From the NCBI RefSeq assembly GCF_000223395.1, contig NC_015931.1, positions 300,001 through 332,000 on the forward strand: a DNA stretch of 32,000 nt. Direction: 5' to 3'. The stretch is from Pyrolobus fumarii 1A (GTDB taxonomy: Archaea > Thermoproteota > Thermoprotei_A > Sulfolobales > Pyrodictiaceae). Below the pieces are notes generated by a model that saw only the letters and a list, made by a program, of their open reading frames with translations, was not told where the DNA came from and searched no databases. How positions within the stretch are numbered: the stretch's first letter is position 1; every line of letters starts with the position of its first letter. Shown piece by piece: positions 1,169-27,282 of this stretch. Both the position numbers and the translations under genes were made by a program.

Positions 1169-3404
1169 CCACTATCCTGGCTGTTAGCGGGGTTCTCCAG
1201 ACGCCCAGCTCCTCGTATGGGATCCTGAGCGTCTCGTTGAGCGCCACCACGTGGTATAGGAGTGCTCCGGTAGCAGCATCGTAGATGTACACCTGGCTGC
1301 CTATCGGCACCCCTGTTATCGTCACGTAGGGGTTGCTAGCCACGAGGAGCTTCGCTACCCACGCTGGTATCGGTACCGTTGGCGCTGTCGGCGGGGACTC
1401 GATGTAGAATGTTATGTTGACGGTGTGAGCTCCTGGGGGTAGCACCTCCCTCATTAGCCTCCATGTGAGCGGTGCCCATAGCTTCCTCCTGAACACATCG
1501 TCCACATACACGTAGGGTATCGTCTGTGCTAGTACGTCGGAGCCCCAGGCGCCGGGTACCCTGCCGTAGAAGCCCATCAGGTACGCGTACACTACGCAGC
1601 CCCCGTCGCAGCTCACGTTGAAGATTAGGCCTGCCCTTGGCCACTCTACCCACAGTTTCAGGGCATTGCCGAGGTTCGTGTCCTCGTAGGTTACCAGCGT
1701 GTAATTACCCCAGAGTTGGAGGCCGAGATCCTCGCCTGCGCAGGGTTCCAGCTCGCTCTCGAAGCAGTAGTACGAGATGAGACCCTCCGCCTCCTTCACA
1801 ACCTCATAGTCCGTCGCGTTGATCTTTACAACCCTGATTAAATCGCCGGGCCATAGTGTGCCGGTCCACACGGCTGGCTTCGCGGCCTCCGGTACGAGCT
1901 CCACGCGCCACACGCTAAACGCGTAGAGAGTGTCAATCTGGTTGAATGGCGCCGCTCCAGCCCTGGCTCTGCTGATGTTATACCATAGGCTCACTACTAT
2001 CGGCGAATCGATAGTGAGGTTGACACCGCGGCATATGATGGTTACGTCTGCATCCGCGTCTACCTGACCCGGTTGCAGAGCGTCAGACACCGCCATGATA
2101 CAGCCGCCATACCTGAGCAACGTTGCGTTCGTAGCGCCCGTGAACAGCTCAGGGTTCTCCACGGGGATGATGTCGGCAAGGTCATTATCGAAGAGCAGCT
2201 TGCCGCCTAGGTAGATCCTCAGCCTCAGGGTAGCGTTGAGCAGGAGGGTCTCGGTGTGGTTTGTTGAGGAGCCGTCGGTGAGCGCCTTCTTTGCCGTCAG
2301 GTCTGCGGGGCAGCCGAGCTCCGCACACGGGTCCCTAACCCACAGGTCGATGCGGAGCGTGTAGCGGCCCTCCACAACCCTCGGGTGTATGGTGATGTTG
2401 CAAGCCCCTGCAGTCGCGTTGCAGGTTAAGCCCAGACCGTGATCCCTGTCCACCCAGGGTTTCACCACGCTCCCAGAGTACGCCACGATGCCCTCGGCGG
2501 CGTATCCCCACCAGCCCTGGAGTGTCGAGACGTCGTCGAACGAGAGGATTATGCTCGGACCGGGTTTACTAGGCTGTGGTGTCGGGCTCCTCCCATAGTC
2601 TATGACTATCGTCTTGACCTCGCCGTCCCTGAGCGTCACCCTGTAGGTTCTGTCGACGGTTGTTGAGCCGGATTGTGCCGTGATCTTGACCGTGTACTCG
2701 CCGGGTGCGAGGCCACACAGCTTCAGGTACCCTGGGTCATTGGAGACTAGCTCCGCTGGCCACTGGGATGCGCCACGCTCGATCCTAACACTTAGGATGT
2801 TTGCAGGGGTTCCCTCAACCCAAGCGTCTACCTCTATGCAGCCCGGCTTGCCCAGTATCCTGAGGACTTGTGTCCCGTGGATGGTGGCTACGTACACCGC
2901 GATGGTCGTGTTGGGGTTGTGGTATAGCATTGGGAGGATTATCGGCTCGGTTGTCTCGATTGTGATGTAGCCTCCCGGCTTGACGACGGGGTAGCCGTCG
3001 CTGCTCCACTCCGGGGCCTCCACCCTCAGCTCCTGTGGGATATCGCCGAGTGCTCCTGGCGCCTTCCACTCCTGGCTCCAGAGCCATAGTGGCGGGTATC
3101 GAGAGTTATCCTCGAGGGCGACCGCCAGGTAGACTATCTTGGCTCCGAAGCGCCCCACGTTCTGCAGTGTGACCCTGAGCCTAGCCCTGTACTCGTCGAC
3201 GGGGATCCACTCGTAGTCGACGAGTTTGAACTGGGTCTGGAGCTGCCTCTCTGCGATAAGCTTCTCCTCGGCGATCCTCAGCTGCGCCTGGAGCCCCTGC
3301 AGCTGGATCGAGTAGACGGCCACCTGGGCGAAGAGGATGATCGCCATGAGGGCGACGACGGCCGGCAGCACCGTCTGGCCCCGCAGCCTCCCCCACGCCA
3401 CCAC
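1155..3404 (-). CDS. large (749 aa) secreted/surface protein with a type IV pilin-like (class III) N-terminus
   Basis: The N-terminus is MVAWGRLRGQ/TVLPAVVALMAIILFAQVAVY, a basic-Gly-Gln segment followed by a hydrophobic helix. The protein has many N-x-S/T sequons and a beta-rich Y/W/T/V composition. The 14-mer GCCACTGCGGGGCC lies 25 nt upstream of the GTG start. Confidence 0.6.
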   Translation of the reverse strand: MVAWGRLRGQTVLPAVVALMAIILFAQVAVYSIQLQGLQAQLRIAEEKLIAERQLQTQFKLVDYEWIPVDEYRARLRVTLQNVGRFGAKIVYLAVALEDNSRYPPLWLWSQEWKAPGALGDIPQELRVEAPEWSSDGYPVVKPGGYITIETTEPIILPMLYHNPNTTIAVYVATIHGTQVLRILGKPGCIEVDAWVEGTPANILSVRIERGASQWPAELVSNDPGYLKLCGLAPGEYTVKITAQSGSTTVDRTYRVTLRDGEVKTIVIDYGRSPTPQPSKPGPSIILSFDDVSTLQGWWGYAAEGIVAYSGSVVKPWVDRDHGLGLTCNATAGACNITIHPRVVEGRYTLRIDLWVRDPCAELGCPADLTAKKALTDGSSTNHTETLLLNATLRLRIYLGGKLLFDNDLADIIPVENPELFTGATNATLLRYGGCIMAVSDALQPGQVDADADVTIICRGVNLTIDSPIVVSLWYNISRARAGAAPFNQIDTLYAFSVWRVELVPEAAKPAVWTGTLWPGDLIRVVKINATDYEVVKEAEGLISYYCFESELEPCAGEDLGLQLWGNYTLVTYEDTNLGNALKLWVEWPRAGLIFNVSCDGGCVVYAYLMGFYGRVPGAWGSDVLAQTIPYVYVDDVFRRKLWAPLTWRLMREVLPPGAHTVNITFYIESPPTAPTVPIPAWVAKLLVASNPYVTITGVPIGSQVYIYDAATGALLYHVVALNETLRIPYEELGVWRTPLTARIVVIPP

Positions 3405-3487: not shown

Positions 3488-3828
3488 GTGCAACCGCGGT
3501 TGCACGGGTAGACTATCGTCGAGGCGTTATCACGCCACGGGTACTATACGCGGAGCCGAGTCAACCGCGGTTGGAGCGAGACAAGAGTCTATGGAGTCCG
3601 GCTACGCCTGGAGGGTCTCGGGGCGCCGGCTCCAACCGCGGTTGTAGCCACTCACGGTACGCCAGTTCGCCCGGGGAGGGAGAGGGGCGAGCGAATGTAC
3701 TCCATGCGTAGCAGCCATGGACGGGGCCCGTATCCCGGTGGCGCCATCAGGGTAACACCATGCGAACGAATGTTCGGCCTCCACGGGCGAGCTCCGAGCA
3801 CTCGTTCACCAGTCTTAACCGCGGTTGG
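3488..3828. repeat. cluster A of AACCGCGGTT palindromes (4 copies) in a 468-nt non-coding gap
   Basis: Copies are GTGCAACCGCGGTTGCAC at 3488-3505 (18-bp perfect palindrome), tCAACCGCGGTTGG at 3561-3574, CCAACCGCGGTTGt at 3632-3645 and ttAACCGCGGTTGG at 3815-3828. Core starts are 3492, 3563 and 3634 (71-nt steps), then 3817. Confidence 0.85.
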
Positions 3829-3872: not shown

Positions 3873-4316
3873 CTAGACGCTTTCGAGCCTCGCTGTTAGC
3901 CTCCGGTACTCGCCGTCGTCGAGCAGGTAGTAGGCTTCTACGCCAGCCCTCCTCGCGTTAACAGCCTGTATCCTGTCGCACGTGGCGAGGATGGACCCGG
4001 TTACCCTCGCGCAGGCTATGAAGAACGCGTCTGCGGCCCTACACCCGGTTCTAAGCGCGACCTCCACGGCCTCCTCGTGCAGAGTGTCGTAGCCCACGAG
4101 GTTGACGAACCTCGTTATCTCGGCGACGTGCGACGCGGCTCTCTCCGGCCTGTACCTGGCCAGCACGCCGCTAAGCTCGACCACAAGGAGCATCGGGGCG
4201 TACACCGGGAGGTTCCTCCTAGACACCACGTCGATCACGCGTAGGCTCCTCCTGCTCCTCTCGGCGTCGAAGCGTATCAGCGCATCCACGTAGACGGAGG
4301 TATCCAGGACTATCAA
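3873..4316 (-). CDS. vapC: PIN-domain toxin (VapC-like ribonuclease)
   Basis: The N-terminus (M)IVLDTSVYVDAL is a typical PIN first acidic motif. The size is 147 aa. The TTG start overlaps the stop of the upstream antitoxin-like gene (TTGA). Confidence 0.75.
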   Translation of the reverse strand: MIVLDTSVYVDALIRFDAERSRRSLRVIDVVSRRNLPVYAPMLLVVELSGVLARYRPERAASHVAEITRFVNLVGYDTLHEEAVEVALRTGCRAADAFFIACARVTGSILATCDRIQAVNARRAGVEAYYLLDDGEYRRLTARLESV

Positions 4317-4567
4317 CGCCGGCCCCCGGTCAAGCTCTTCAGGGGATCCTCGCGCACACCGCTATACTCGCGCGACAACCTGCGTATAGCCTCGGCGAGC
4401 CCCCCAGACCCCCGGACGATCACTATCACGACCCTCTCGCCGTCCCTCAGGTTCACCCGCCTAAGGGGGCGCAACACACCCCCCTCATAGACAGCCTCCA
4501 CGACCTCCAACGCGCGGCCCCGGGACAAGTGTGGAGAAAGAACCGTATCATATAACGTGGCTGGCAT
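4313..4567 (-). CDS. DUF104 (AF2212-like) antitoxin-type protein paired with VapC
   Basis: VEAVYEGGVLRPLRRVNLRDGERVVIVIV matches the DUF104 signature IEAVYENGVxKPL...LKEGE recalled from the family. The ATG at 4567 was chosen. Shorter TTG starts at 4528 or 4510 are possible, and the long ORF-track start at 4681 overlaps the upstream gene. Confidence 0.6.
   Translation of the reverse strand: MPATLYDTVLSPHLSRGRALEVVEAVYEGGVLRPLRRVNLRDGERVVIVIVRGSGGLAEAIRRLSREYSGVREDPLKSLTGGRR
4548..4555 (-). promoter_or_regulatory. TATA-like box TTATATGA upstream of the short DUF104 start candidates
   Basis: This is a rare A/T-rich octamer in GC-rich context, about 23 nt upstream of the TTG at 4528. It lies inside the ATG-4567 reading, so the box and the long start are mutually exclusive. 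Confidence 0.25.
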
Positions 4568-4583
4568 CCGGGCTGGAGGGGTC

Positions 4584-4985
4584 CTAGGGTTCGGCGTCTC
4601 CGAGCTCCGCCGCGAGGAGTGAGCGTATCTCGTCCAGTATGGCTGGTAGCGAGGGCTCTTCCGCCGGTACGACACTCCCATCGCTTAGGTGCTTGTGGTG
4701 CGGGTGGGTTGGTAGCTCTGGGTGGTGCGGGGCGTTATCATAGCGGAATCTGAGGTTACCATGGGGATCCTCGTAGTGGAAGCGATAGGCTATCCTCTCG
4801 ACCCTCTCGCCCCGCGAGACGAGATACTCGAGGAAGTGCAGCCTGGATCCATCCACGAACCTGATTAACCCTCTCAACACGAGCCTAGTCGGCGACCTCA
4901 CCTCCATGGTGATGCTCGAGTATGTTATCAGCTTGCTAAGCCTCCACAGCTTCTCTATCACTCCTCTCGTATACTCTGCGAGCAA
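4584..4985 (-). CDS. DUF6516-like protein (family annotated as TumE-type toxin)
   Basis: The motifs RFHYEDPHGNLRFRYDNAPHHPELPTHPHHKH fit the recalled DUF6516 pattern (RYDNAPHH...PHHKH). It overlaps the upstream partner by 50 nt, and an alternative ATG lies at 4907. Confidence 0.45.
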   Translation of the reverse strand: MLAEYTRGVIEKLWRLSKLITYSSITMEVRSPTRLVLRGLIRFVDGSRLHFLEYLVSRGERVERIAYRFHYEDPHGNLRFRYDNAPHHPELPTHPHHKHLSDGSVVPAEEPSLPAILDEIRSLLAAELGDAEP

Positions 4986-10421: not shown

Positions 10422-10880
10422 TCACCCTATCTGTATTGTTGCGTAGGTTGTCTTGCTGTACTCGTTGCCCTGGGGATCCCTGTAGTAGACTGTGACCCTG
10501 AGCGTCTTGCCCTCTACGAAGCTTGTTGCTCCGAAGTCTCCTGGTTTCAGCGTGAATCCTAGGGTTGTGGTGGCGCCGGCGCTAAGCAGCCTGTTGAGCG
10601 TCACGTTGTAGGTTGCACCCTCGTAGCCGAACTCGACTACAGTTACATTGAGGGGGACGTTACCATCATTCTTTACCATTAGGTTGATGCTGAGCTCCGA
10701 GCCGTCTGGTGGGATAACAGCAGTGACGCCGGAGACCGATAGGGATGCTATGGTCCTGGGCCTCATGAACTGCCCCATGAACATCCAGACCATTAGGCCG
10801 CCCACCACGGCCACCAGGATCAGTATCATCGCCGCGACGACCGGGGAGACCGCCCTAACCCTACCCGCCACCATGGCCAC
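10422..10880 (-). CDS. archaeal type IV pilin-like protein (class III signal, DUF361-type N-terminus)
   Basis: (M)AMVAGRVRAVSPVVAAMILILVAVVGGLMVW matches the RAVSPVIA-type prepilin N-terminus. A beta-rich domain (LMVKNDGNVPLNVTVVEF) follows. The start is GTG 10880 or ATG 10874. Confidence 0.7.
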   Translation of the reverse strand: MAMVAGRVRAVSPVVAAMILILVAVVGGLMVWMFMGQFMRPRTIASLSVSGVTAVIPPDGSELSINLMVKNDGNVPLNVTVVEFGYEGATYNVTLNRLLSAGATTTLGFTLKPGDFGATSFVEGKTLRVTVYYRDPQGNEYSKTTYATIQIG

Positions 10881-12714
10881 TCTCCAGTTTGCTGAAACCA
10901 GACCCCGCAGTGGCCCAGGGACGCGTCTCGAACAACTCCTGCTCTTCCTCTTTTAGCACAACATGAACGGGTAGCCGGAGGCCCTCTGTTAGTATCAGGG
11001 CGTCGCCTACGTCCGCGCTCATTATGAGCTCCTTCTCCTGGTCTGTTAGCCCGAAGAGCTCGGCTGCAGCCTGCGCCGCGTCATAATCGTGGTGGAAGAG
11101 GACCTTGAGGCTGCTGAGCTGCACTGCTATCACCCTGGCCGCCCTGGAGGCCGAGACGTCGCGTGGGTCGTGAGCGATGTGCACGAAGCTCGTGTAGAGC
11201 TTCCTCGAGTCCCGGAACGCCTGGAGCAAAGCCGAGACCACATCGTAGTCGCGGAAGGCCTCGAGCACTTGAACAAACTCGTCAAGCACCACGATCTTCC
11301 TGACGCTCCTAGGCTCCTCGCGTACCCGCTTGAGTATAACCAAAAGTGATAATGCAGCTGCTAGACGCTCTGCCTCGGGGCTACCCATCTCGCGCAACAC
11401 GATAACCACGCGTTTACCCGGCTTGGGTTCTTGACCCGTGAATAGGAAGCCTAGAGGCCCCTCAAGGAGTGCGAGTAGACGTTCTCTTAGCCTCTCAGAC
11501 GCTTTGTTTGCAACCTCCTCTAGACTAGTGCATCTGGATGCTAGTCTTTGAAGCTCGGCTTTCAGGTCAGGCTCTAGGCTAAGCAATGCTGCAATGAATG
11601 TAGCTGCGTGCTCAGGGTGCATTAGGCGGAACGGGTCGAGACCAGCCTTAACGCCACGCTTAAGCTCGAATATGTCAGCGTTCATCGCTTTACCAACCCT
11701 GATGTACTCCCCGGTACGGTCGATGATGTAGACTCTTAGCTCAGGGTCAAGCCGTGAATATCCAAGCGTTATTTTCTTCGCAAACGCTGATTTACCATAG
11801 CCCATCATGCCAAGCACGACAACATTGTAGCTCGTTCGGGCCCAGAGATCCAGGACGACAGGCGTGTCGTCAAGGAGGCTACGGCCCAGATAGATGCCAC
11901 CGGGCTCGACAAGCTGCGTGGTTATGAACGGGTAGAAGGCGGCGAGGGTGACGCTATCGGTGAAGATGGGCTTAGGTTCCTCGCATTCGTACACCTTGTA
12001 ATAATATATTGTGGAGTCCCCGGCTGCGAATCCGAGTGCGTCGAGCTCGCGGATCAGGAGTCTCGCTGCTTCCCTCGCCTCGCTGGGCGTCGACCCGGAG
12101 ACGACGAGCGCTACGCGCACGGCGTGTAGCCTGGCTTCTCGCGCCGCAACCTCCTCCATAAGCTCCGATACCAGCTGCAGCTCCTCGAGCTTCTCTAGCC
12201 TGGGCGCCTTGCCCTCGATCTGCCACGAGGCCACAAGCATCTCTAGGAGCTTCCTCCTTGACCTGAGCAGCCTGAATGCCGCGTGCCTGGAGAGCGGCGT
12301 GACACAGAGCCTAGCCTCCTCGAGGTGAGGGTACAGGTTGTAGAGGAAGCCCTCGGCGAGGACACGAGGCAAGCCATAGACCGTGACGACGCGATAGACC
12401 CTACCCCCGCACACCGCGTAGCTCCTGCGAAGCTCGCAACGCCCCGGGTCGATGAGCGGGGGCGGAGGCTCCAGGAGAGGCTCGTAGCGTAGCCCGGCCC
12501 TCGAGAGGAGAGGGTCAAGCCTCTGCTCGCTGGCAATGTAGAACTCGTAGCCTGGGACCTCCTCACCCTCGATCTTAACGACGACTCTGCGCACGATGAG
12601 CTGCGTCGTCTTCTCCAGCTTGTCGAGGAGAACTCTAAACGAGTCTATGATCGCCTCCTGCTCCTCCTCAGGGAGCAATGGAAACCCGATTGGGTGGATT
12701 TTGTAAGCGTACAC
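10861..12714 (-). CDS. VirB4/HerA-superfamily (CedB/TrbE-like) DNA-transfer ATPase
   Basis: The protein is 617 aa, with Walker A VVVLGMMGYGKSAFAKK and Walker B RKIVVLDEFVQVLE. The domain order is typical of AAA_10/DUF87 conjugation ATPases. It has a GTG start. Confidence 0.7.
   Translation of the reverse strand: MYAYKIHPIGFPLLPEEEQEAIIDSFRVLLDKLEKTTQLIVRRVVVKIEGEEVPGYEFYIASEQRLDPLLSRAGLRYEPLLEPPPPLIDPGRCELRRSYAVCGGRVYRVVTVYGLPRVLAEGFLYNLYPHLEEARLCVTPLSRHAAFRLLRSRRKLLEMLVASWQIEGKAPRLEKLEELQLVSELMEEVAAREARLHAVRVALVVSGSTPSEAREAARLLIRELDALGFAAGDSTIYYYKVYECEEPKPIFTDSVTLAAFYPFITTQLVEPGGIYLGRSLLDDTPVVLDLWARTSYNVVVLGMMGYGKSAFAKKITLGYSRLDPELRVYIIDRTGEYIRVGKAMNADIFELKRGVKAGLDPFRLMHPEHAATFIAALLSLEPDLKAELQRLASRCTSLEEVANKASERLRERLLALLEGPLGFLFTGQEPKPGKRVVIVLREMGSPEAERLAAALSLLVILKRVREEPRSVRKIVVLDEFVQVLEAFRDYDVVSALLQAFRDSRKLYTSFVHIAHDPRDVSASRAARVIAVQLSSLKVLFHHDYDAAQAAAELFGLTDQEKELIMSADVGDALILTEGLRLPVHVVLKEEEQELFETRPWATAGSGFSKLESGHGGG
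10901..10914 (-). promoter_or_regulatory. motif-2 copy (minus strand GCCACTGCGGGGTC) upstream of a pilin-like gene
   Basis: It lies 20 nt upstream of GTG 10880 (26 nt from ATG 10874). It sits inside the last codons of the VirB4-like gene, where it is read as ATAG. Confidence 0.5.
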
Positions 12715-12902
12715 TTGTGGGCCCCAAGTTCATTGCATGTAGAGACTCACTGGGTGCGGGCACGGTTTGGAGTGCTTCGCGATGAACACCAGTCACGTGA
12801 ACATCTCGTGCTGCTCTATGCTCGTGTTTACCCCTCCCGGCCCTCCCGCGTTAAATAATCTTCGATTTCTTTATTAGGATGTGCGGGGGCGCGCGCAGTA
12901 GC

Positions 12903-12944
12903 TCTGCATGCACGGTTCCAACCGCGGTTGGAACCAGTGCAGAG
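12903..12944. repeat. extended inverted repeat centred on a perfect 22-bp palindrome GGTTCCAACCGCGGTTGGAACC (12914-12935)
   Basis: The outer arms are CTCTGCA (12903-12909) and TGCAGAG (12938-12944). It lies in the 266-nt gap between the TFB-like stop (12981) and the VirB4-like start (12714). An A/T-rich box TTAAATAATCTTCGATTTCTTTATTAGG lies nearby, at about 12851-12878. Confidence 0.85.
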
Positions 12945-12980
12945 AGGAGCATCGGCTGGCACATGTGAGGCTGGGCGGGA

Positions 12981-13973
12981 CTAGTCGTGGGAGTAATTGG
13001 CTAGGAGTGTGATCAGCCGAAGTATTATCAGATCGAGTTGTTGCGTCAGGTTACGGGAGAGGCTCCTGACATAGATGTTGATGGTCTTCGGGTAGACAAG
13101 GGCTGTGAACTCGTCACGTGTATCCATCACTTTGAGCCTGTCTCCCTGGTTGAGGATCACTAGCCTCTCGTGGAGGCCCTCGGGCACCCCGTGTATCTCT
13201 ATGCGGAAGGGGAGGTGTAGAACCGACGTTGCAACCATGGGTTTGGGCTCTGTTATCTCGACCCCGAGCTTCGACGCCACGTGGCGTAATGCACGCTCAG
13301 CCTCCTCGAGATTGCCTAGGCGTGCTGGTGCCTCGAGCTTACCCCTCGTGACCTGAACCTTGACGCCACGAGTCTCGACGATTACCTGTTTCACCGCGCC
13401 TCTCCTCACGCGAGACGCTAGGATGATCGCCGCCCGGTAGACGTCGATGGGTTGCAGGGGCTTAGCAGCCAGCCGGACGAGCGTGCTGGAGACAGCCTCG
13501 CGCCAGGCCTCGAGGAGGCTCCTGGCGGTTCTCACCGCTCTACGAGGCGCACCCAGCCTATCGCCATACACGGCCTCCTGGAGAGCGTCTAGAGCCGTGT
13601 TCGGGTTCAGCTTGTAGACCCGGCGTAGCACCCGATACGCGCCGAGGCAACGCACGCCGCAAATGTCGATCGCCCTGGACTCGCCTACGCGAAGCCACCC
13701 GCCGATCTCCTCGCGAATCTGCTTCAGGTCTTCATCGGTCTCTGGTAGCCCTCCCCGGGCCGCGATATCCTCGAGTCTCTCGCGTCTCGTCGGCTCCCTG
13801 GGCCTCTCCACCGGCGTGTAGTGATCCCTTGCTAGGAGCTCCTCGGTGTCATAGGCCCTGTACTCCGGGTGAAGATCGACAGGCGAGTCGTCTATGACAA
13901 CGCCGGTCTCCGGGTCGATTATTGCGCCGCTATGTGGATCCACTATCCAACCGCGGTTGGATACTCTGGTCAC
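12981..13973 (-). CDS. divergent TFB (TFIIB)-like protein lacking Zn-ribbon cysteines
   Basis: The N-terminus WIVDPHSGAIIDPETGVVIDDSPVDLHPEYRAYDTEE parallels the archaeal TFB ribbon/B-reader segment (..D...GE..C...G.V.....ID.GPEWRAF), with the Cys residues replaced. The length of 330 aa is TFB-like, and PIDVYRAAIILASRV is a possible cyclin-like helix. An 18-bp palindrome lies in codons 4-10. Confidence 0.45.
   Translation of the reverse strand: MTRVSNRGWIVDPHSGAIIDPETGVVIDDSPVDLHPEYRAYDTEELLARDHYTPVERPREPTRRERLEDIAARGGLPETDEDLKQIREEIGGWLRVGESRAIDICGVRCLGAYRVLRRVYKLNPNTALDALQEAVYGDRLGAPRRAVRTARSLLEAWREAVSSTLVRLAAKPLQPIDVYRAAIILASRVRRGAVKQVIVETRGVKVQVTRGKLEAPARLGNLEEAERALRHVASKLGVEITEPKPMVATSVLHLPFRIEIHGVPEGLHERLVILNQGDRLKVMDTRDEFTALVYPKTINIYVRSLSRNLTQQLDLIILRLITLLANYSHD
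13945..13962. repeat. perfect 18-bp palindrome ATCCAACCGCGGTTGGAT at the 5' end of the TFB-like gene
   Basis: It lies 12-29 nt downstream of the ATG at 13973 and is read as SNRGW. Confidence 0.85.
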
Positions 13974-14021
13974 GGGCGTGGACCCTAGAGGGTCGCGTAT
14001 AGCCCGTAGCTCCTGTTAACA

Positions 14022-14636
14022 CTACCGCTTGTCACCCTCTTTCAACTCCACCAGCACCCTCCTCTCGTAGAGCACCACGCCATCCGGCCCAACGATACGA
14101 ATGACATGGTGCCCGGGCTTCAGGTAGAGCAGCGCCGAGAAGCGGCCAGACCCGTCGGTACGAGCCTCAGCCACCCTCCTACCGTCAACCTCGGCAACAA
14201 CCTGGGCACCCACGAGGGGCGAGCCATCCGGGGCCACCGCGACGCCCTCAAGCCTCACAGGCTCCCCCACCGCCACAACAACCCTCGCCACCCCGCGATC
14301 CGCGCCGCGCCTCTCGCGGGCAGCGCGGGACTTGGCTGGTGGGCGTTTACCAACCGCGGTTGAGCGAAATGCAGCAAGGAGCTTCTCCTCGGGGCACCAC
14401 GCGGTGCAGCCCGGTGCGAGCGCCGTGACGGTGAGGCCGATGACGCTGGAGGCTATCAGGGCGGGGAACCAGTCGAGGCCGTTCTGGAGCGCCACGAGGA
14501 GAGCAACTAGGGCGGCAGGCGCCCCGTAGAAGAGGAGGCGGCGTGGCTCGACGTCACCGATGAAGGGTAGTGTTATGATCGGCTCCTCGAGCCACCTGCG
14601 CTCACGGAACCAGAGTGTTCTTATGATGCGTGCCAT
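14022..14636 (-). CDS. membrane protein with a C-terminal carboxypeptidase-regulatory-like beta-sandwich
   Basis: Two central TM helices are present. The C-terminal GVAVAPDGSPLVGAQVVAEVDGRRVAEARTDGSGRFSALLYLKPGHHVIRIV resembles a CarboxypepD_reg fold. It overlaps the upstream gene by 16 nt. Confidence 0.45.
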   Translation of the reverse strand: MARIIRTLWFRERRWLEEPIITLPFIGDVEPRRLLFYGAPAALVALLVALQNGLDWFPALIASSVIGLTVTALAPGCTAWCPEEKLLAAFRSTAVGKRPPAKSRAARERRGADRGVARVVVAVGEPVRLEGVAVAPDGSPLVGAQVVAEVDGRRVAEARTDGSGRFSALLYLKPGHHVIRIVGPDGVVLYERRVLVELKEGDKR

Positions 14637-15079
14637 GCTAGGAGCGACACCCCGACTATGAAGGCTGCGGCGCCCAGTGTTGTGAGGATAGTGTTCGCCG
14701 TTGGGTCGTCGTAGTGGATTGGGCCGCGTAGCCTCCTTCTCGAGAGCGGCCAGAGGGGCCAGACGCCCGCGGGTGTCAGGGCGTCGAGGGCTAGGTGGGT
14801 GGCGGTCCCCGCCGCTGCGAGCGGGTAGGCTAGTGGCGTGACCAGCCTCCAGGCCGCGTTAAGAACAGCTGTTATCAGGGCGGGGAGGAGCAAGCAGGCG
14901 AACAGGTTGTGGGTCCAGGGTGCGCGCCGACGCCCAACATGCCCCAACGCATCTATGAACTCGTCCGCGGCGAGAGCCGCCAAGAGAGCCACGCCGAAAT
15001 CGGCGAAATGCGCGTGGAGCAGCCCGGCGAGGAGCGCAACAACACCCGCCGCGATGCTTAAGTGCGTCTTCCTCCTCAA
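14621..15079 (-). CDS. DUF457 (YdjM/YbcI-like) membrane-bound metal-dependent hydrolase family protein
   Basis: MRRKTHLSIAAG at the N-terminus and THLALDALTPAGVWPLWPLS match the recalled DUF457 pattern (H..lD.lT..Gv.l..P). Confidence 0.55.
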   Translation of the reverse strand: MRRKTHLSIAAGVVALLAGLLHAHFADFGVALLAALAADEFIDALGHVGRRRAPWTHNLFACLLLPALITAVLNAAWRLVTPLAYPLAAAGTATHLALDALTPAGVWPLWPLSRRRLRGPIHYDDPTANTILTTLGAAAFIVGVSLLAWHAS

Positions 15080-15342: not shown

Positions 15343-17856
15343 TTAGCCTTGCGAGGCTGCAGTGATTGCAAACATCTTGTGTATGTAAGCTCGTACCAGC
15401 GGATCTGCATAGGCTAGCATGGCGGCGAGTATCAATGCGACTATTGTTAGTCTCAGTGTAGCCTTGAGGGAGCCGTCTATCGCCTTGCTGCCCACCGTGG
15501 CCATCGCTGCGCTAGCCTCGACTACCATGAGCCTGGTTGCCTCGACGCTAGCCGGGTTGAGGACGAAGAGGGTTGGCGTGGCTACGCCCGCGCCCGAGAC
15601 CTGACTAGTTATCCTCTGGAGCTGGACTGTGAACACCTCGGCGATCCCCGCGCTCATGGAGGCGAAGGAGGCTAGCATCACGGGAGCCGCGTACATCAGC
15701 GCCTCGTAGAGCCTCAGCTGGCTCTTCATCTCGCGGTAGGCGAGATAGTAGTCCTGGAGGAACCTGTGGAGAGTCTCCAGGACCCGTGGAGTACCGCCAC
15801 CCGTCGCCTCTATCTCGGCGACGGTGAAGAGAACTATCCTGGCGACCCTCGAGGGGGTCCAGAGCCTCAGCACCGCCTCGTCGAGCGGTACGTCGAGCCT
15901 CAGCATGGCCGCGAGCTTCTCAATTAGCGCGTTGAAGTGCTGGTTGTAGGGCTTCCTCTCGGCGAGGTCTAGGATGGCACTCGAGGGTGGTAGCCCGATC
16001 TTACGGTACTCGAGCAGGTCGCGGACGAAGAGGGGGAGAGCCGCCTCGTGGGCCCTGGCGATGCGCACCTGGAGCAGCCACTGGGCGCCGTAGCCGAGCC
16101 CCAGCGCCGCTATCACGGCTGTGAGGGCTGCCCAGGAGTACCCGTAGCTGAGCACACCCCACGCCGCCGCGACAGCCACGGCAACGGCGGGTATACCGTG
16201 GGCTATCGCCACCTCGGGAACCGTGAAACCCAGTTGCATTGACTGCACGATGCCGACGAAGACCGCAGCCATGAGGGGGATCCCCAGGTAGGTGAACACT
16301 TGGAGAAACGCAGCCTGCTCCACAGCGCCGCCGACAATCGCGAAAATGGAGGTTAGGAGGACAAAGGCAATCACCATCACCTCGCCGAGAGTCACCACCC
16401 TCTCGGCGAACTGACGGAGACGGAAACGGAGCCACTCGAGCTGCTCCCTAACCCTATCCTCCAGGTAGCCTAGGAGGTCCCCGCCTGTGACAACGAGGCT
16501 GGTGTACCCACGGAGCAGGTCGGCGAAGCTCCTGGAGGGGTGCGTATCCGCCAGCCTCTCCATAGCAGTGATCCAGTCGACGCCCTCCACCATCACAGTG
16601 CGCTCTAGGAGCCTAGCCTCCCTCTCCATAGCGGGGAGGATGGAGCCCCGGAGCCTCCTGAAAGCCTCGAAGAGGGAGACACCAGCAGCCTGAAGGCTGG
16701 CGGCGAGAAGCACGAACCATGGTAGCTCGTCCTCGACGCGTCTTCTCCTCTCACCCGCCTTGCTAGGTAGCTCTAGCCACGGGGAGGCTAGCGTGGAACA
16801 TGCCGCGAGGAGGGCTGCTCCAACCGCGGTTGCACCGAGTGTCGGCGAGAGTAGGGCGAGTGGCAGGAGGGAGGGGGTGGCCGCGAGCGTTAGAAGTGCT
16901 GCCGTGAGCCTCTTCGAGGCGTAGACTACCGGGTCTTCGAAGACAGCTGCGCGCTGCAGCATCGGCTTGATCCTCTCGGCGTAGGCCTCGAGGAGCTGCG
17001 CGAGCCTCTCGTGCTTGATTAGGAGCGCCACGTACCACCTCGAGTAGTGGGGTCTTATCGCGAGCCTCGGAGCCACCACCACAATCCTATAGATGCTCGT
17101 CGAGAGGCCCGCGAGGCCGTAGACTATCACGATGTAGCCGCTGGCGAGGCTGAGAGAATCCGGAGCCGCCACCAGCAGCGTATAGCCAGCGATAGTGTCT
17201 AGCGCGAACAGCACACCCTCCACGAGCTCAGCGCGGATGAAGGGCGCTTGGCCTCGAGGCGGGTGGATGATGACCCTACTGGGCTTCAGTTTCAGGCCAC
17301 GGACTGCGGCCAGCAGGGAGCCCGTCAAGGCTGGTATCAGGGCGGCTGCAAGGAACGGCCTACCGGGAAGGGCCGAGACAACGGCGAGAGCAGAGTAGGC
17401 GACGGCGGCGAACCTCCACTCGCCCGGCAGCAGCCTCACCGCGTAGTACGTCGAGACCAGGAGGAGCGGGGCGGATGCGAGCGCGAGCATGCTAGCGGGG
17501 CTTGCGGCCGCCACCAATGTTAGTGCGAGCGACTCGAGCAGCAAGAGCACTGAGTACCTTGGCTTGGGTCTCACTAAGCGGGTGGCCAGGTACGCCACGC
17601 TAGACGAGAGGAGGGGTGCGGCGAGCACCAGCGCTGGCAGCGGGCCTAGCAGAGCAACCGCGGTTGGAACTGATGCGGCGAACAACAGCGTTGACAGCCA
17701 ATGGGGGGTGGTGATCCCGAGTAGGACGCCCGCCAGGAGGCCGGACGCCAGCGCCACTATAGTATAATAGATATCTATCCCGTGATGGAGAGTCGGTAGC
17801 GACGCGAGCCACGCGATCACAGTGACCGCGGTTAGAGCGGCCCTCCTCGCATTCAC
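15343..17856 (-). CDS. TadC/FlaJ/PilC-type pilus platform protein (two T2SSF repeats) with a long polytopic N-terminal extension
   Basis: Two T2SSF-like repeats are present: ELPWFVLLAASLQAAGVSLFEAFRRL...GGDLLGYLEDRV and ALPLFVRDLLEYRKIGLPPSSAILDL...TGGGTPRVLETL. The protein is 837 aa, with roughly the first 380 aa being extra TM helices. It lies immediately downstream of the T2SSE ATPase. Confidence 0.75.
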   Translation of the reverse strand: MNARRAALTAVTVIAWLASLPTLHHGIDIYYTIVALASGLLAGVLLGITTPHWLSTLLFAASVPTAVALLGPLPALVLAAPLLSSSVAYLATRLVRPKPRYSVLLLLESLALTLVAAASPASMLALASAPLLLVSTYYAVRLLPGEWRFAAVAYSALAVVSALPGRPFLAAALIPALTGSLLAAVRGLKLKPSRVIIHPPRGQAPFIRAELVEGVLFALDTIAGYTLLVAAPDSLSLASGYIVIVYGLAGLSTSIYRIVVVAPRLAIRPHYSRWYVALLIKHERLAQLLEAYAERIKPMLQRAAVFEDPVVYASKRLTAALLTLAATPSLLPLALLSPTLGATAVGAALLAACSTLASPWLELPSKAGERRRRVEDELPWFVLLAASLQAAGVSLFEAFRRLRGSILPAMEREARLLERTVMVEGVDWITAMERLADTHPSRSFADLLRGYTSLVVTGGDLLGYLEDRVREQLEWLRFRLRQFAERVVTLGEVMVIAFVLLTSIFAIVGGAVEQAAFLQVFTYLGIPLMAAVFVGIVQSMQLGFTVPEVAIAHGIPAVAVAVAAAWGVLSYGYSWAALTAVIAALGLGYGAQWLLQVRIARAHEAALPLFVRDLLEYRKIGLPPSSAILDLAERKPYNQHFNALIEKLAAMLRLDVPLDEAVLRLWTPSRVARIVLFTVAEIEATGGGTPRVLETLHRFLQDYYLAYREMKSQLRLYEALMYAAPVMLASFASMSAGIAEVFTVQLQRITSQVSGAGVATPTLFVLNPASVEATRLMVVEASAAMATVGSKAIDGSLKATLRLTIVALILAAMLAYADPLVRAYIHKMFAITAASQG

Positions 17857-17880: not shown

Positions 17881-19515
17881 CTAGGCTGCAGTGCGGCGCC
17901 TCTGCATGTGGAACGCCTTAAGGTGCCGATAGAACTCTTTCCAGTTGTAGATCCTCTTCTCGGTTAGCCTCTCTAGGAGCTCGGCTCGGGCCGCCAGCTC
18001 CTCGACGAGGCGCCCCCGGTCCCAGCCCAGGGCCTCTGCCTTGACCTGAAGCCTCACGGATCTCCTCGCAACCTCCTCGGGGCTGCTTGGCTCGAAGGTG
18101 TCGCGGCGCGGGTCCCACCTGAACACCTGAGTGTACTCTATCTCGTCTTGGACTCCGGGTGCGCGCACCAGGATCCTCGGGTGGCCCTGCCTAGGCTCAG
18201 GGAGGATCTCGTAGACGGCCTTCACCCTGCGGACGGTTCTACCCTCGACGACGGTCCTCGTCATGAAGACGATGGTGTTGAGGACGCGGATGAATGAGGG
18301 GCCTACGCTGAGCGGCGGCGATACGAGCCTCGTCACCATCTCGTGTAGAGAGCCAGCATGGAAAGTGCCACCTCCCCCGTGACCCGTCGCAAGAGCCTGG
18401 ATGAGCACCGAGGCCTCCTCGCCTCTAACCTCGCCGACGACGATCACTTGCGCCCTCCTCCTAAGCGCGAACTTGACGAGGTCAAACAGCGTCACGTCTC
18501 TGGCGGTTCCCGCGAAGAAGGATCTCCTGGTGTATAGCGGGTCCCAGCCGGGATGCGGCAACCGGAGCTCAGGGACGTCCTCGACTGTCACTATCCTCCA
18601 GTCGGGTGGTGCCATGGAGAGCGTCGCGTTGAGCATGGTTGTCTTCCCCGAGGCCATCTCGCCGACGAAGAAGACGTTGCCGTAGAGCTCCAGGAGGAGC
18701 ATGAGGTACGCCGCGAGCAGCGGAGAGAGGGTACCTAGCTCCACCAGCTTAGGCACCGAGTAGGGGACCTCCGGGAACTTGCGGAGCACAAACCCGGGAC
18801 CAACACCGTGGATGTCGCCAAGGTTCAGAGCTATCCTGTGACGCTCTGGTGTACGCGCCTCGAGGAGAGGATTAGCCGTCGAGATGTACTGGCCAGCCTT
18901 CTGGGCCAACCGCTGCACATACCGGGCCATCTCAGCCTCCCGGGGCATCACGATGTTAGTCTCGATCCACGTGACCCACCCTACGTCACGGTGCACGACC
19001 TGCACGGGTCTACCCGGAAGTCCCGCAACCTCCTCGACGTTAGGGTCGCGCACCAACACATCGATAGGACCCCAACCGGCTACATCGCGAGTTACATAGT
19101 ACTGCAATGCCCTCAGGTCGTCCCCGCTCATCACGTCGGCTAGACCAAGCTCCTCGACAGCCTCGATCACAACGGCCTTCAGGTACTCCTCGTGATTGAT
19201 GCCGTCGGAGGGCGGCCTAGCGGTGAACGCAATATGGTCCATGACGAGAGGGTAGTAGCGTCTGACTGACTCGCTAACCGGTGGCTCGTGAACCAGATAC
19301 ATGACTTCATTCTCGAACTCGACAAGGTAGACCGTAGCCAGGTTGTCGACACCAGCACGGTATGATCTCAGAACCCTAGCCCTACCCGGCAATACTACAG
19401 CATCGGCTTGTGCGCTGACCAGGCGGTAGCCAGTCGCGATCCTCCGGCGTCGACGTCCGGGGACAAATGCATCGAGTAGTGCTTTTCTCAAGCCATTTAG
19501 GTCTAAGCCTTTCAC
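17881..19515 (-). CDS. GspE/FlaI/TadA-family (T2SSE) secretion/pilus assembly ATPase
   Basis: It has Walker A GEMASGKTT, Walker B VIVVGEVRGEE and His box TGHGGGGTFHAGS. The GTG start overlaps the upstream stop (GTGA). Confidence 0.85.
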   Translation of the reverse strand: MKGLDLNGLRKALLDAFVPGRRRRRIATGYRLVSAQADAVVLPGRARVLRSYRAGVDNLATVYLVEFENEVMYLVHEPPVSESVRRYYPLVMDHIAFTARPPSDGINHEEYLKAVVIEAVEELGLADVMSGDDLRALQYYVTRDVAGWGPIDVLVRDPNVEEVAGLPGRPVQVVHRDVGWVTWIETNIVMPREAEMARYVQRLAQKAGQYISTANPLLEARTPERHRIALNLGDIHGVGPGFVLRKFPEVPYSVPKLVELGTLSPLLAAYLMLLLELYGNVFFVGEMASGKTTMLNATLSMAPPDWRIVTVEDVPELRLPHPGWDPLYTRRSFFAGTARDVTLFDLVKFALRRRAQVIVVGEVRGEEASVLIQALATGHGGGGTFHAGSLHEMVTRLVSPPLSVGPSFIRVLNTIVFMTRTVVEGRTVRRVKAVYEILPEPRQGHPRILVRAPGVQDEIEYTQVFRWDPRRDTFEPSSPEEVARRSVRLQVKAEALGWDRGRLVEELAARAELLERLTEKRIYNWKEFYRHLKAFHMQRRRTAA

Positions 19516-19792: not shown

Positions 19793-20968
19793 TTAATATT
19801 CCTGCTGCTGGTGTGTGAAAGCGTGCCAAGGTATCCCTAGGGTCTCGTCGACGACCCGCTTGTAGTATCTCCTTGTTTGAAGTTTCCACAACGTATGTTT
19901 GTAAGCATGTTGTAGAATGTAACCTAGGCCGCCTAGCGGGTATGTTGGCTCTCTTATCGCATGTATCAGACCCCGGGTGAACCCGACTATCCTCGAGGCT
20001 ATTCCGCCTGTGGGTGTCGTGACCGGCCATGGTAGTGGGCTTCGGACGAGTTCTGGGGCTGCTGCCAGGTGTGGCACGATCTGTCTGATTGTCTTTGCCG
20101 CTGCGGGGCCAGCCACATAGCCTAGGAACATGCTTGTCAGGGCCATTGTCGTGGAGGCTCTAGGAGCTAGGATGCTGGCGATGACTGGGGCGAAGAAGCT
20201 GGCTGCTATCATCATGAGTGTGAGGCCGGCCTCGTAGACGCCGCTGGGGTCCCAGTGGGTTATGAGTTCGGACCCCAGCCTGTACACCGCAGATGCCAAC
20301 AGAGGCACGAAGAGCAGGCCGGTGAGGGTTGACACCGCCCCATGGGCCACGTCCCGCACGTACCTGGCGGGAGCGAGCGTCAGGGCTAACCATAGTGGGA
20401 GTGTCGCTGCTAACACCGCTGTAAGCATCAAGCGGAGCGCGTTGAACATCCCGAGGAAGATCATGATGGAGAAGAAGGCTGTGAGGACTGCTGGAGCCCC
20501 GAGCAGCGTCGCACCGCCTATGACTGCCGCCGCGCCCTCGGTGACCTTCGCGAGGTAGACGTCCTCGGGGTTGCCCGAGAAGAGGGTGTAGGACCCCCAC
20601 GCGACGAGAGCAGCCGCCCCGTCGTAGACGTGCTTCGAGAGGAGGATGGCTAAGAGGACTAGGAGCGAGCGTTTCAACACAGTGCCCAGCTCCACCCTAT
20701 CCTCATAGAGGTATTCCAGAAGCGCGAGGAGGGTCATGAAGGTGTAGGCCAGGATGCCTAGCAGCAGGGAGGTGTCGTACACCGCGTTCATGGCGGGCGC
20801 GAGGTCGTGGAAGACGCGGGGCGCGTCGCGAGTATAGACGTCGAAACCGGGGACGGCAAGGCTAAGCTCGATGACAGGCTTCACGGTAAACTCGGCGATG
20901 AAACGCGCGACAGGATCGATAAGCGTCTTGAAAAGCTCGTTAAGCGCGTCGAATATCGGGTTTCCCAT
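19793..20968 (-). CDS. polytopic membrane protein, VirB6/TrbL/CedA-like candidate
   Basis: It is 391 aa with many TM helices, flanked on both sides by small 2-TM genes as in cedA1-cedA-cedA2. The assignment rests on architecture and context, not on a recognised motif. Confidence 0.5.
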   Translation of the reverse strand: MGNPIFDALNELFKTLIDPVARFIAEFTVKPVIELSLAVPGFDVYTRDAPRVFHDLAPAMNAVYDTSLLLGILAYTFMTLLALLEYLYEDRVELGTVLKRSLLVLLAILLSKHVYDGAAALVAWGSYTLFSGNPEDVYLAKVTEGAAAVIGGATLLGAPAVLTAFFSIMIFLGMFNALRLMLTAVLAATLPLWLALTLAPARYVRDVAHGAVSTLTGLLFVPLLASAVYRLGSELITHWDPSGVYEAGLTLMMIAASFFAPVIASILAPRASTTMALTSMFLGYVAGPAAAKTIRQIVPHLAAAPELVRSPLPWPVTTPTGGIASRIVGFTRGLIHAIREPTYPLGGLGYILQHAYKHTLWKLQTRRYYKRVVDETLGIPWHAFTHQQQEY

Positions 20969-20987: not shown

Positions 20988-21275
20988 TCACTCGGCGGTG
21001 ACTAGGCGCAGCACATTCACCGCGATGACCATCCCCGCTATCGCCGAGACTATCCACTGGACCCAGCGGAGCAGAGTCACCATCATGTCGCCGAGCGTCC
21101 TCCCGCTCGGCAGCTGTACCTTCGCAACGTCGGGCTGCTGGCTGTAGATGCCCCAGCCTAGGAAGCTCCTCGCGAAGAAGTCGATTGCATAGGGGAGGAT
21201 CCACACGAGGATCAACACAAAAACAGCGACCATCAACTGCTTCTTGGCTCGTGCAGCCTCGAACGGGTCCGGCAC
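20988..21275 (-). CDS. small 2-TM protein (VirB2/CedA1-like pilin candidate)
   Basis: Two hydrophobic helices are present (LMVAVFVLILVWILPYAIDFF and MMVTLLRWVQWIVSAIAGMVIAV). GTG 21275 was chosen because motif-2 lies 27 nt upstream of it. The alternatives are ATG 21377, which adds a 34-aa hydrophilic leader and overlaps the upstream gene, or ATG 21233. Confidence 0.4.
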   Translation of the reverse strand: MPDPFEAARAKKQLMVAVFVLILVWILPYAIDFFARSFLGWGIYSQQPDVAKVQLPSGRTLGDMMVTLLRWVQWIVSAIAGMVIAVNVLRLVTAE

Positions 21276-21302
21276 GGATCCCGCACCCAGGAGTGTGGCG
21301 GG

Positions 21303-21316
21303 GACCCCGCAGTGGC
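21303..21316 (-). promoter_or_regulatory. motif-2 copy (minus strand GCCACTGCGGGGTC)
   Basis: The exact 12-mer core lies 27 nt upstream of the GTG at 21275. Confidence 0.45.
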
Positions 21317-21357
21317 GTGAGGCGGTTGTCGAGAGGTGTTCAGGGTGGTGGCATGTG

Positions 21358-21795
21358 TTAACCGCGGTTGCCGGCAACGCTGGCGACCTTGCACCTCATT
21401 TCTCCCACAACCCCTCCCAAGATCATGGCAGACGTGGAAAGCGCGGCGCTTACGGGGTCTACCGCGGGTCTAACACCGAACAAGCTCAGGGTGAGCGTGG
21501 CTAACACGACAACCGTGAAGTACGGCACAGCTATGGAGATGGCCCCTCGAAGACCGTGTCTAAACCCCTCCGTGAATGACTCCACCAGACCCACGAGCAC
21601 CAGGGTCACGCTAAACGCGGCGAGTAGAGGTACGTTTATCAGAGGCTGGGCGTTGACACCTAGCGTGCGAAGCCAGGCCATAAAAGCCGTCTCAGCTGCG
21701 TGTATCGCCCTGAGGCCCATCTGTAAAAAGCTGTGCAAGACATCCTCGAGGGCCATCTCGACTATAATGAAGGGATTGTGAGACATGCGCACCAC
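21358..21795 (-). CDS. membrane protein (3-4 TM), first gene of the Ced-like block
   Basis: It is 145 aa with several hydrophobic segments. The start is GTG 21795 or ATG 21786. The stop codon lies inside the palindrome ttAACCGCGGTTGc (21358-21371). Confidence 0.5.
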   Translation of the reverse strand: MVRMSHNPFIIVEMALEDVLHSFLQMGLRAIHAAETAFMAWLRTLGVNAQPLINVPLLAAFSVTLVLVGLVESFTEGFRHGLRGAISIAVPYFTVVVLATLTLSLFGVRPAVDPVSAALSTSAMILGGVVGEMRCKVASVAGNRG

Positions 21796-26712: not shown

Positions 26713-26777
26713 AACCACCCCCGCTTCCACTGGAGCACCTGGAGAACCCCCTACTCCTCTCTACTATCCTAACTACT

Positions 26778-27222
26778 CCAACCGCGGTCGAATCCCCCGC
26801 TTAACCGCGGTTAAACCCCGGTTCCAACCGCGGTTGGAAACAAACTCCCCCACATCAAGAGCCCCGAGCACAACAAGACACCCAAGACACTCTTACCCAC
26901 GAGTACCTCCCCACGCACCGGGGTCTGGTTTAACCGCGGTTAGACTCGGGTTCCAACCGCGGTTGGGGTGGACCGAAAGTACCGGACACCCCTCCGGACA
27001 GGAAGATATTCTAGAACAACCATGACACGCTATCTTGTTATATACCATTTTACGGGCTAAACTCGGGCTGAAGAGAAGCTAAACTCGCGGGGATCATCAC
27101 GCGGTGCATAGAGACTTAGGTTTCAACCGCGGTTGGAACCCGGGATTCGGGCCCGGGAAGCGACCAGGGAGGCGCAAACAAGTAGTTGTGGTAGTCGAGG
27201 GGTTCGCCCCAACCGCGGTTGG
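26778..27222. repeat. cluster B of AACCGCGGTT palindromes (7 copies) in a 570-nt non-coding hub with an A/T-rich core
   Basis: 14-mers start at 26778 (core 1 mismatch), 26801 (TTAACCGCGGTTAA), 26824 (TTCCAACCGCGGTTGGAA), 26930, 26953, 27123 and 27209. Three spacings are 23 nt. The 37-nt composite unit 26801-26837 is repeated at 26930-26966 (34/37 identical). The A/T-rich stretch at about 27001-27060 has 22/60 G+C by hand count. Confidence 0.85.
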
Positions 27223-27282
27223 ATGCGGGCGGGGCTAGGCGAGACACTGCTCTAGTCAACATCCCTTTGAGCAGCCCTGGGT

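Follow-up and report, generated by a model that had tools for sequence, protein, structure and literature searches.

Transcription initiation in archaea and eukaryotes relies on two separate proteins, TBP and TFB/TFIIB, which to our knowledge have until now been collapsed in one chain only in engineered Brf1–TBP fusions. The gene considered here, Pyrfu_0344, lies in a stretch of 32,000 nucleotides of the Pyrolobus fumarii 1A genome (contig NC_015931.1, positions 300,001 to 332,000; hereafter the window, to which all coordinates refer unless a contig is named). Its product carries a TFB-like N-terminus and, according to structure prediction, a TBP-like C-terminal half, and it is encoded within a cluster of pilus and VirB4-like DNA-transfer genes.

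Among the regulators predicted for archaeal type IV pilus (T4P) loci, TFIIB homologues are the most frequent (PMC4858521). Those homologues (arCOG01981, and arCOG05559 with a single cyclin domain) are co-operonic with the T4P ATPase and TadC genes and have retained the Zn finger together with a single cyclin domain or two; a TBP-like domain is described for none of them (PMC4858521). In Sulfolobales, TFB3 activates ups and ced (PMC6101594), and this precedent, invoked in the first-pass annotation of the window, is thus documented. TFB3 resembles Pyrfu_0344 as a truncated TFB derivative tied to the ups and ced genes and deprived of the C-terminal DNA-binding cyclin/helix-turn-helix (HTH) part. 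It has four ribbon cysteines and a C-terminal coiled coil, is UV-induced and is encoded away from its targets (PMC6101594), whereas Pyrfu_0344 has a Cys-less ribbon, ends with a TBP-like saddle and is encoded inside the cluster. The viral TBP-like/TFIIB-like factors (poxvirus VETF-L and VITF-3, B263R of African swine fever virus (ASFV)) are eukaryotic-viral and show no sequence relationship to Pyrfu_0344. Divergent viral TBP-like saddles are described in dedicated polymerase-recruitment roles (PMC12917281). A protein with a TFB head and a TBP-like tail was found neither in PMC4858521, PMC6101594, PMC9905601 and PMC3597702 nor in the otherwise searched literature, and this architecture appears to be undescribed.

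The gene and its N-terminal ribbon and reader

The open reading frame (ORF) at 12981-13973 on the minus strand, 330 codons long, was present as annotated in the first pass and starts with GTG. Its product is identical to Pyrfu_0344 of P. fumarii 1A, labelled "hypothetical protein". TAA occurs in frame 15 codons 5' of the GTG, with no alternative earlier start. Pyrfu_0344 is a real gene, since its 55%-identity orthologues and the members of ~30% identity are full-length and the AlphaFold fold is confident. The plus-strand ORF 13105-13356 that overlaps it was dismissed as an unsupported shadow frame. The exhaustive HMMER search, with 28 matches overall, delivered about 15 family representatives, all from hyperthermophile-type Thermoproteota and named hypothetical in every source; the locus search with the five-sequence family alignment added only two further Ignisphaera-like loci. 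The Pfam scan of Pyrfu_0344 matched nothing at E ≤ 10 and no membrane segment was found. No relative was found in IMG/VR, and a viral origin was set aside on this basis.

Sequence comparisons indicate that residues ~6-52 of Pyrfu_0344 are homologous to the TFB/TFIIB zinc ribbon and B-reader. In the phmmer search of the PDB the P. furiosus TFB zinc ribbon (1pft) ranked first (residues 9-42, E 0.01; 14 of 35 positions identical over residues 9-43), and with the five-sequence family profile the E value reached 0.0013, all four matches listed (E ≤ 10) being TFIIB ribbons. The NCBIfam TFIIB model PRK00423 matched residues 6-49 (E 4.7e-5) and an unannotated PHROG family matched residues 10-51 (E 2.9e-6). 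Below the family members, the exhaustive HMMER search placed proteins of ~175-307 aa (P0020-P0030) that matched the first ~50 residues only. Because PF00382 cyclin repeats were present in all eight of these N-terminus-only relatives that were aligned (set A3), they are, by sequence, genuine TFBs in which the ribbon cysteines have also been lost. The hhalign comparison of the Pyrfu_0344 family with the Cys-less genuine TFBs gave a probability of 98.9% (E 2.3e-17) and was confined to columns 3-52. The closest relative of the Pyrfu_0344 N-terminus is the clade P0020-P0029, which shares with it the DPETG pseudo-knuckle and E-[WY]-R-A-[FY]. This clade comprises full-length TFB paralogues with both cyclin repeats and wholly Cys-less ribbons (VDPVTGEIVDPETGEV...EWRAY). 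The N-terminal likeness to TFB noticed in the first pass is, on the PDB, PRK00423 and hhalign evidence, real homology that includes the reader motif E-[Y/W]-R-x-[Y/F].

P-E-Y-R-A-Y of Pyrfu_0344 is the counterpart of TFB G-P-E-W-R-A-F, at which the B-reader starts. TFIIB residues E62 and R64, the counterparts of reader-motif residues, govern start-site selection, as documented by Sua7 genetics and Pol II–TFIIB structures. The motif E-[Y/F]-R is retained in 12 of the 15 family members, a thirteenth (P0022) having P-W-R, and the N-terminus is acidic in all 15. The ribbon itself is not of the four-cysteine type with two CxxC knuckles. Pyrfu_0344 contains only C105 and C109, leaving residues 1-104 without cysteine, and DPETG occupies the place of CxxCG in the second knuckle. 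The view that all ribbon cysteines had been replaced fits this second knuckle; the first one is absent altogether, only eight residues preceding W9 at the hairpin. The loss of ribbon cysteines need not abolish function, since Sulfolobus TFB1 functions with just two of them (PMC6101594). Homology to TFB ends behind the reader: HDxGLxT of the B-linker, invariant in the A3 TFBs, has no counterpart in the 15-member family alignment, and the hhalign alignment stops at column 52.

The helical domain and the C-terminal saddle

Pfam model PF00382 matched none of the 15 family members and all eight control TFBs. Alignment of the middle helical domain with TFB gave an hhalign probability of 0.4%, and the profile search of the PDB with this domain returned designed helical repeats only. 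Cyclin repeats in Pyrfu_0344 were rejected on these grounds together with the whole-family hhalign comparison. The segment PIDVYRAAIILASRV (residues 175-189), which had been taken for a possible cyclin-like helix, corresponds in both AlphaFold models to the S1-H1 segment of the first TBP-like repeat, the helix in question being H1. The profile and structure searches found the ribbon and reader parts of TFIIB, and in place of the cyclin fold a TBP-like saddle. The protein is not a TFB paralogue in the family sense, as it had been called: cyclin repeats and B-linker are missing, and its whole-protein PRK00423 score of 22.6 bits is far below the cut-off of 384. Compared with canonical TFB/TFIIB, with which it shares the ribbon hairpin and the B-reader segment, Pyrfu_0344 lacks the first CxxC knuckle, the zinc ligands, the HDxGL B-linker and the cyclin repeats and has a different C-terminal fold.

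AlphaFold2 was run twice, with 5 and 15 aligned sequences, and gave agreeing folds, in both cases four helices followed by a beta-rich saddle with no two-cyclin-repeat layout. In the second run the mean predicted local distance difference test (pLDDT) score was 83.9, all five models falling within 80-84. This model shows three short strands at residues 10-28 and a short helix at residues 43-48 (both with pLDDT ~50-70), a loose linker of low pLDDT at residues 53-94, four helices at residues 95-162 and, at residues 165-330, two copies of a strand-helix-strands-long helix unit (both regions with pLDDT >90). The saddle topology was S1-H1-S2..S5-H2, twice, in both runs.

Foldseek searches of the PDB with these models returned TBP almost exclusively, with more than 40 chains on top (E 1e-7 to 1e-5, probability 1.00). 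The superpositions on TBP chains covered ~180 columns with a template modelling (TM) score on the target of 0.6-0.7 and a root mean square deviation (RMSD) of 3.4-5 Å. The top PDB match of the better model was an artificial, engineered Brf1–TBP fusion chain with 301 aligned columns; its full-chain superposition was poor (RMSD 16-20 Å), the true match being the TBP part only. The annotated top matches in BFVD included giant-virus TBPs, poxvirus VETF-L and an ASFV B263R homologue, many others being unnamed. With TBP, Pyrfu_0344 shares a two-repeat saddle of about 165 residues, the same order of strands and helices and a basic domain; it differs in that the saddle is fused to other domains, does not match Pfam TBP and has no significant sequence similarity to TBP. 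PF00352 had no match in the 15 family members at E ≤ 10, and TBP appeared neither in the PDB search with the family profile nor among the 28 matches of the exhaustive HMMER search. As no significant sequence link to TBP or between the two repeats was detected, the resemblance is one of fold only, and the C-terminal half of Pyrfu_0344 is, according to the models, a two-repeat TBP-type saddle outside the TBP family.

All 15 members have a basic TBP-like domain (net charge +3 to +17, isoelectric point 9-11.4). Its best-conserved strand residues (R167, W168, Q207, T209, K212 and D214 of repeat 1 and those of repeat 2 given in Table 1) have polar, basic or aromatic side chains, as would be expected if the sheet were exposed and bound a ligand. 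Residue 294, aromatic (Y/F) in 13 of 15 members, takes the 'liF' position of repeat 2, at which repeat 1 has Thr, judging by eye and without coordinates.

The conserved neighbourhood and the proposed role

The first pass had described a combined pilus and VirB4/CedB-like locus, and all its parts (UpsF-like platform, FlaI/UpsE-like ATPase, VirB4-like ATPase) were found. Genes on the minus strand follow the order T4SS-pilin-like, VirB6-like, FlaI/UpsE-like ATPase, UpsF-like platform, 82-aa protein, YdjM and CarboxypepD_reg proteins, Pyrfu_0344, a 266-bp spacer, VirB4-like ATPase and CARDB-like protein (Table 1). Since the intergenic gaps from the FlaI/UpsE-like ATPase down to Pyrfu_0344 do not exceed 48 bp or the genes overlap, Pyrfu_0344 appears to close the pilus-motor operon. 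The order is repeated in two Pyrodictiaceae-type contigs, L003 and L004, the latter stopping inside the gene corresponding to the VirB4-like ATPase, and in the distant contigs L131 and L133, the counterparts of Pyrfu_0344 there being 31-33% identical; L133 starts with an integrase fragment. Conservation within the module is lowest for Pyrfu_0344 (55% identity vs 69-88% for the neighbours).

Other members have different surroundings. Those of Ignisphaera (L001, L127, L128) follow a TadC-like gene pair in an otherwise housekeeping setting. The L130 member, in which the B-reader motif is degenerate, is divergent from an archaellum-like operon (archaellin, KaiC/FlaH-like, FlaI, FlaJ) and located 4 kb from a HerA–NurA pair (these neighbours spanning L130 1-6285 and 11433-14229). 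The distant member P0022 (L005 491-1363) has 290 aa and two cysteines kept in the N-terminus, and no pilus genes occur within 10 kb on the single side covered by its contig. This contig is of low GC, and the neighbours (DEAD/ResIII helicase, resolvase, sigma70_r4-like HTH protein) make up a mobile-element-like setting. Apart from the P0022 locus, a T2SSF-family gene lies in or adjoins every locus long enough to show neighbours.

Table 1. Position of Pyrfu_0344, its parts and the adjacent features in the window
Feature	Coordinates	Strand	Remarks
Pyrfu_0344, founder of unannotated family	12981..13973	-	330 aa, GTG start; about 15 clusters at 50% identity
Cys-less TFB-type ribbon remnant and B-reader-like PEYRAY...HYTP	13818..13958	-	Residues 6-52; three short strands, net acidic
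Linker, low model confidence	13692..13817	-	Residues 53-94; length varies 10-75 aa in family
Conserved four-helix domain without detectable relative	13485..13691	-	Residues 95-163; pLDDT >90
TBP-like repeat 1 (S1-H1-strands-H2), predicted	13254..13484	-	Residues 164-240
TBP-like repeat 2, predicted	12984..13253	-	Residues 241-330; conserved strand residues T249, R279, K281, T290, Y/F294, N299, Y301
20-bp perfect palindrome TATCCAACCGCGGTTGGATA	13944..13963	.	Inside Pyrfu_0344 codons 4-10
22-bp perfect palindrome	12914..12935	.	46 bp after Pyrfu_0344 stop, in 266-bp spacer before VirB4-like gene
GTTAACAGGAGCTAC, possible promoter element	14006..14020	-	33-47 bp upstream of Pyrfu_0344 start codon
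VirB4-like (weakly CedB-like) ATPase	10861..12714	-	Immediately downstream of Pyrfu_0344 in window, L003, L131, L133
Membrane protein with CarboxypepD_reg domain	14022..14636	-	Conserved upstream neighbour of Pyrfu_0344
YdjM-family membrane protein	14621..15079	-	Conserved upstream neighbour of Pyrfu_0344
UpsF/TadC-like T2SSF platform protein	15343..17856	-	837 aa
FlaI/UpsE-like T2SSE secretion ATPase	17881..19515	-	
VirB6/TrbL_3-like membrane protein	19793..20968	-	Homologous to L133 and L131 TrbL_3/VirB6-like proteins (30% identity, E 4e-28 and 6e-23)
Small protein, weak T4SS_pilin match (VirB2-like)	20988..21377	-	Homologous to gene preceding VirB6-like gene in L131, L133

From the observed N-terminal homology, TBP-like fold, charge pattern and conserved neighbourhood we infer a regulatory role for Pyrfu_0344, its contact with RNA polymerase (RNAP), DNA binding, target promoters and the choice between replacing and assisting the host TBP/TFB being the conjectural parts of it. 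We consider it evenly balanced whether the protein is a locus-dedicated initiation factor that combines TFB-like docking on RNAP with TBP-like DNA binding; the idea arose because the ribbon-reader-linker-helical order mirrors that of TFB, with a TBP-like module replacing the DNA/TBP-binding core. In such a factor the acidic N-terminus of ~50 residues would dock RNAP at the TFB site (dock domain and RNA exit channel), the basic two-repeat saddle would bind and bend the promoter DNA of the cluster, and the flexible linker with the four-helix domain would bridge both ends in place of the TFB linker and the first cyclin repeat. Made together with the pilus genes, it would switch on or boost the downstream VirB4-like DNA-transfer operon. 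A bolder version seems to us rather doubtful, namely that Pyrfu_0344 replaces host TBP and TFB as their natural single-polypeptide counterpart, its saddle recognizing a promoter element other than TATA in the cluster and its ribbon and reader recruiting and positioning the host RNAP. A pilus/DNA-transfer element, possibly a mobile one, would in this way have a sigma-factor-like initiation factor of its own and bypass the host general factors. The lack of the B-linker raises the alternative that Pyrfu_0344 may assist host TBP/TFB, by analogy with TFB3.

Several observations weigh against a dedicated initiation factor. The reader motif has been lost in two members, P0007 and P0010, and the N-terminus of Pyrfu_0344 is modelled with a pLDDT of just ~50-70. 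With neither B-linker (HDxGL) nor cyclin repeats, the usual TFB contacts to TBP and the B recognition element (BRE) are missing. Where TBP has its DNA-kinking Phe, repeat 1 lacks an aromatic residue, again by eye and without coordinates. The hhalign comparisons with three archaeal TBPs (sequences taken from PDB alignments) gave probabilities of 0.3-2.3% for the whole domain and single repeats, the best local alignments sitting at topologically equivalent places, which is no more than a hint. Similarity between repeats 1 and 2 had a probability of 0.25%, compared with 99.9% for the control repeats of TBP. Moreover, DNA binding is not shared by all members of the TBP-domain superfamily (PMC3597702).

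The strict adjacency to VirB4-like or TadC-like genes would suit a structural or DNA-handling role equally well. As a DNA-transfer accessory, Pyrfu_0344 would bind and bend the DNA substrate or an origin-like site of the element with its saddle and hand the DNA to the VirB4-like ATPase, a functional analogue of relaxosome accessory and DNA-bending proteins in which the TFB-like N-terminus would be a vestige or a protein-docking peptide. In four loci (L003, L131, L133 and the window; two of them with ~30% identical members) the gene directly precedes that of the VirB4-like ATPase, and this position, the basic saddle and the integrase fragment in L133 are consistent with such a role, as is the lack of a recognised relaxase or DNA-processing partner in archaeal Ced/Ted and conjugative systems (PMC9905601). 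We nevertheless hold it unlikely, for members occur without a VirB4-like gene nearby (Ignisphaera L001/L128, archaellum-like L130) and the family-wide purifying selection on the ribbon/reader motif is hard to explain without an RNAP partner. It is quite improbable that Pyrfu_0344 is a cytoplasmic accessory with a structural or assembly function in the type IV filament machinery, binding the TadC/UpsF-like platform or the ATPase via its TBP-like fold. This would agree with the T2SSF-family gene at or beside every sufficiently long locus except that of P0022, with the three to four untraceable extra components in Desulfurococcales T4P loci (Makarova et al., PMC4858521) and with the ability of TBP domains to mediate protein contacts (PMC3597702); yet Pyrfu_0344 has no membrane segment, secretion machines are not known to use a TFB-derived N-terminus, the L130 member is oriented divergently in the manner of a regulator, and P0022 is accompanied by a DEAD helicase and a resolvase, with no pilus genes within 10 kb on the one covered side.

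An inhibitor or decoy directed at RNAP, akin to TFS4 and viral RNAP inhibitors, would fill the TFB site with its ribbon and reader and/or TATA boxes with its saddle. A TFB-like RNAP-docking module deprived of the cyclin core needed for a normal pre-initiation complex could be read in this way, the acidic N-terminus could mimic DNA on the protein's own basic saddle, and PMC5715097 provides a precedent for a general transcription factor paralogue with an inhibitory role. However, the protein retains those B-reader residues that act after recruitment, its stable vertical inheritance together with structural operons points to a positive, locus-specific use, and there is no sign of toxicity; we find this role scarcely credible.

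If Pyrfu_0344 does act as a dedicated initiation factor, a natural protein with TFB-type docking and a TBP fold would show that the two-factor system is collapsible into one chain, and it would be a first archaeal candidate for an initiation factor that is encoded by an element and redirects promoter use, a counterpart of the sigma factors of phages and integrative and conjugative elements. The Ced/Ted- and Ups-related DNA-exchange clusters of crenarchaea are poorly understood, and Pyrfu_0344 is a concrete candidate for a regulator of them. With this family the TBP-domain superfamily would also gain a new two-repeat branch of high divergence, a point relevant to the origin of TBP.

Upstream of the gene, GTTAACAGGAGCTAC is unique in the window, and 14 of its 15 bases are invariant across three Pyrodictiaceae loci. 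The spacer between Pyrfu_0344 and the VirB4-like gene is long (window 12715-12980, L003 1384-1495, L004 5044-5289) and shows conserved blocks (TGCTTGCAATCCTACTGC...) beyond its palindrome. The window version also carries an AT-rich insert, CCTAATAAAGAAATCGAAGATTATTTAAC, in which a TATA box could lie. DUF5591 proteins are encoded 4-12 kb from a family member in three loci (window 24905-26026 on the plus strand, L001 5182-5826, L128 5102-5785); with 26-28% identity between the Pyrolobus and Ignisphaera proteins, this could be a coincidence or a further linked component.

Dispersed palindromes and other features of the window

Two palindromes had been assigned to the gene in the first pass. The one at its 5' end exists and is perfect, being 20 rather than 18 bp long, and the 22-bp one after the stop was found as described. 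The core of the former, AAC CGC GGT TGG, encodes N-R-G-W, and L003 and L004 carry the palindrome core at both equivalent places, in codons 5-8 of the orthologue (N-R-G-W) and just after the stop. These palindromes do not belong to this gene alone but are two of 21-22 copies in the window: the core AACCGCGGTT occurs 21 times vs 0.04 expected, and CCAACCGCGGTTGG with up to two mismatches 22 times vs 0.14 expected. Copies were located at 15, 933, 3490, 3561, 3632, 3815, 8231, 12918, 13947, 14350, 16820, 17654, 21361-21370 (core only), 24133, 25030, 25984, 26065, 26778-27222 and 28522. The core occupies +9..+18 of the T4SS_pilin-like ORF 20988-21377, and elsewhere in the window some copies fall within the initial 30 nt of ORFs and others as far as about 70 bp 5' of the starts. 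With such variable distances to start codons, a fixed core-promoter element was rejected.

Enrichment of the palindrome extends to the orthologous Pyrodictiaceae contigs L003 and L004. As the flanks of the dispersed copies are not conserved, a site of protein binding seems likelier than a mobile repeat, and the sequence pattern would suit either operators recognized by a dimeric regulator or a control region resembling an origin. That the AACCGCGGTT palindromes are bound by Pyrfu_0344 is in our opinion very unlikely, since perfect palindromes at variable distances from starts point instead to an operator protein acting as a homodimer. Distant loci that still carry the family lack the motif, which argues against its being read by the Pyrfu_0344 saddle. 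Other short palindromes in the distant loci (GCTATAGC and others) were weak and judged compositional.

The non-coding region 26713-27282 (570 bp) contains seven to eight palindrome copies around an AT-rich centre (~27030-27050) and, from its sequence, looks like a replication-origin, oriT or master-control region. The adjoining ORF 26023-26712, winged-helix-like by eye only, carries palindromes immediately on either side of its 5' end. This ORF and ORF 27984-28478, both candidates for the palindrome-binding protein, received no Pfam, NCBIfam or PDB assignment. At 3490-3645 three copies follow one another at an exact 71-bp spacing, with a fourth at 3815 and no repetition of the intervening sequence; they are located in the 470-bp spacer 5' of a 749-aa gene (1155-3404).

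The tRNA-Ser(GCT) gene at 29392-29479 on the minus strand divides the palindrome-rich part of the window that bears the cluster from the housekeeping genes for Thi4 (29661-30485) and PdxS (30765-31874) and could be the boundary of an integrated element. No integrase or att site was recognised among the ORFs in 26.7-29.7 kb, direct repeats not being part of the search. A toxin–antitoxin-type trio inside the region, on the minus strand (3873-4985), encodes a PIN-domain protein (3873-4316), an AF2212-like protein (4313-4681) and a TumE toxin (4584-4985).

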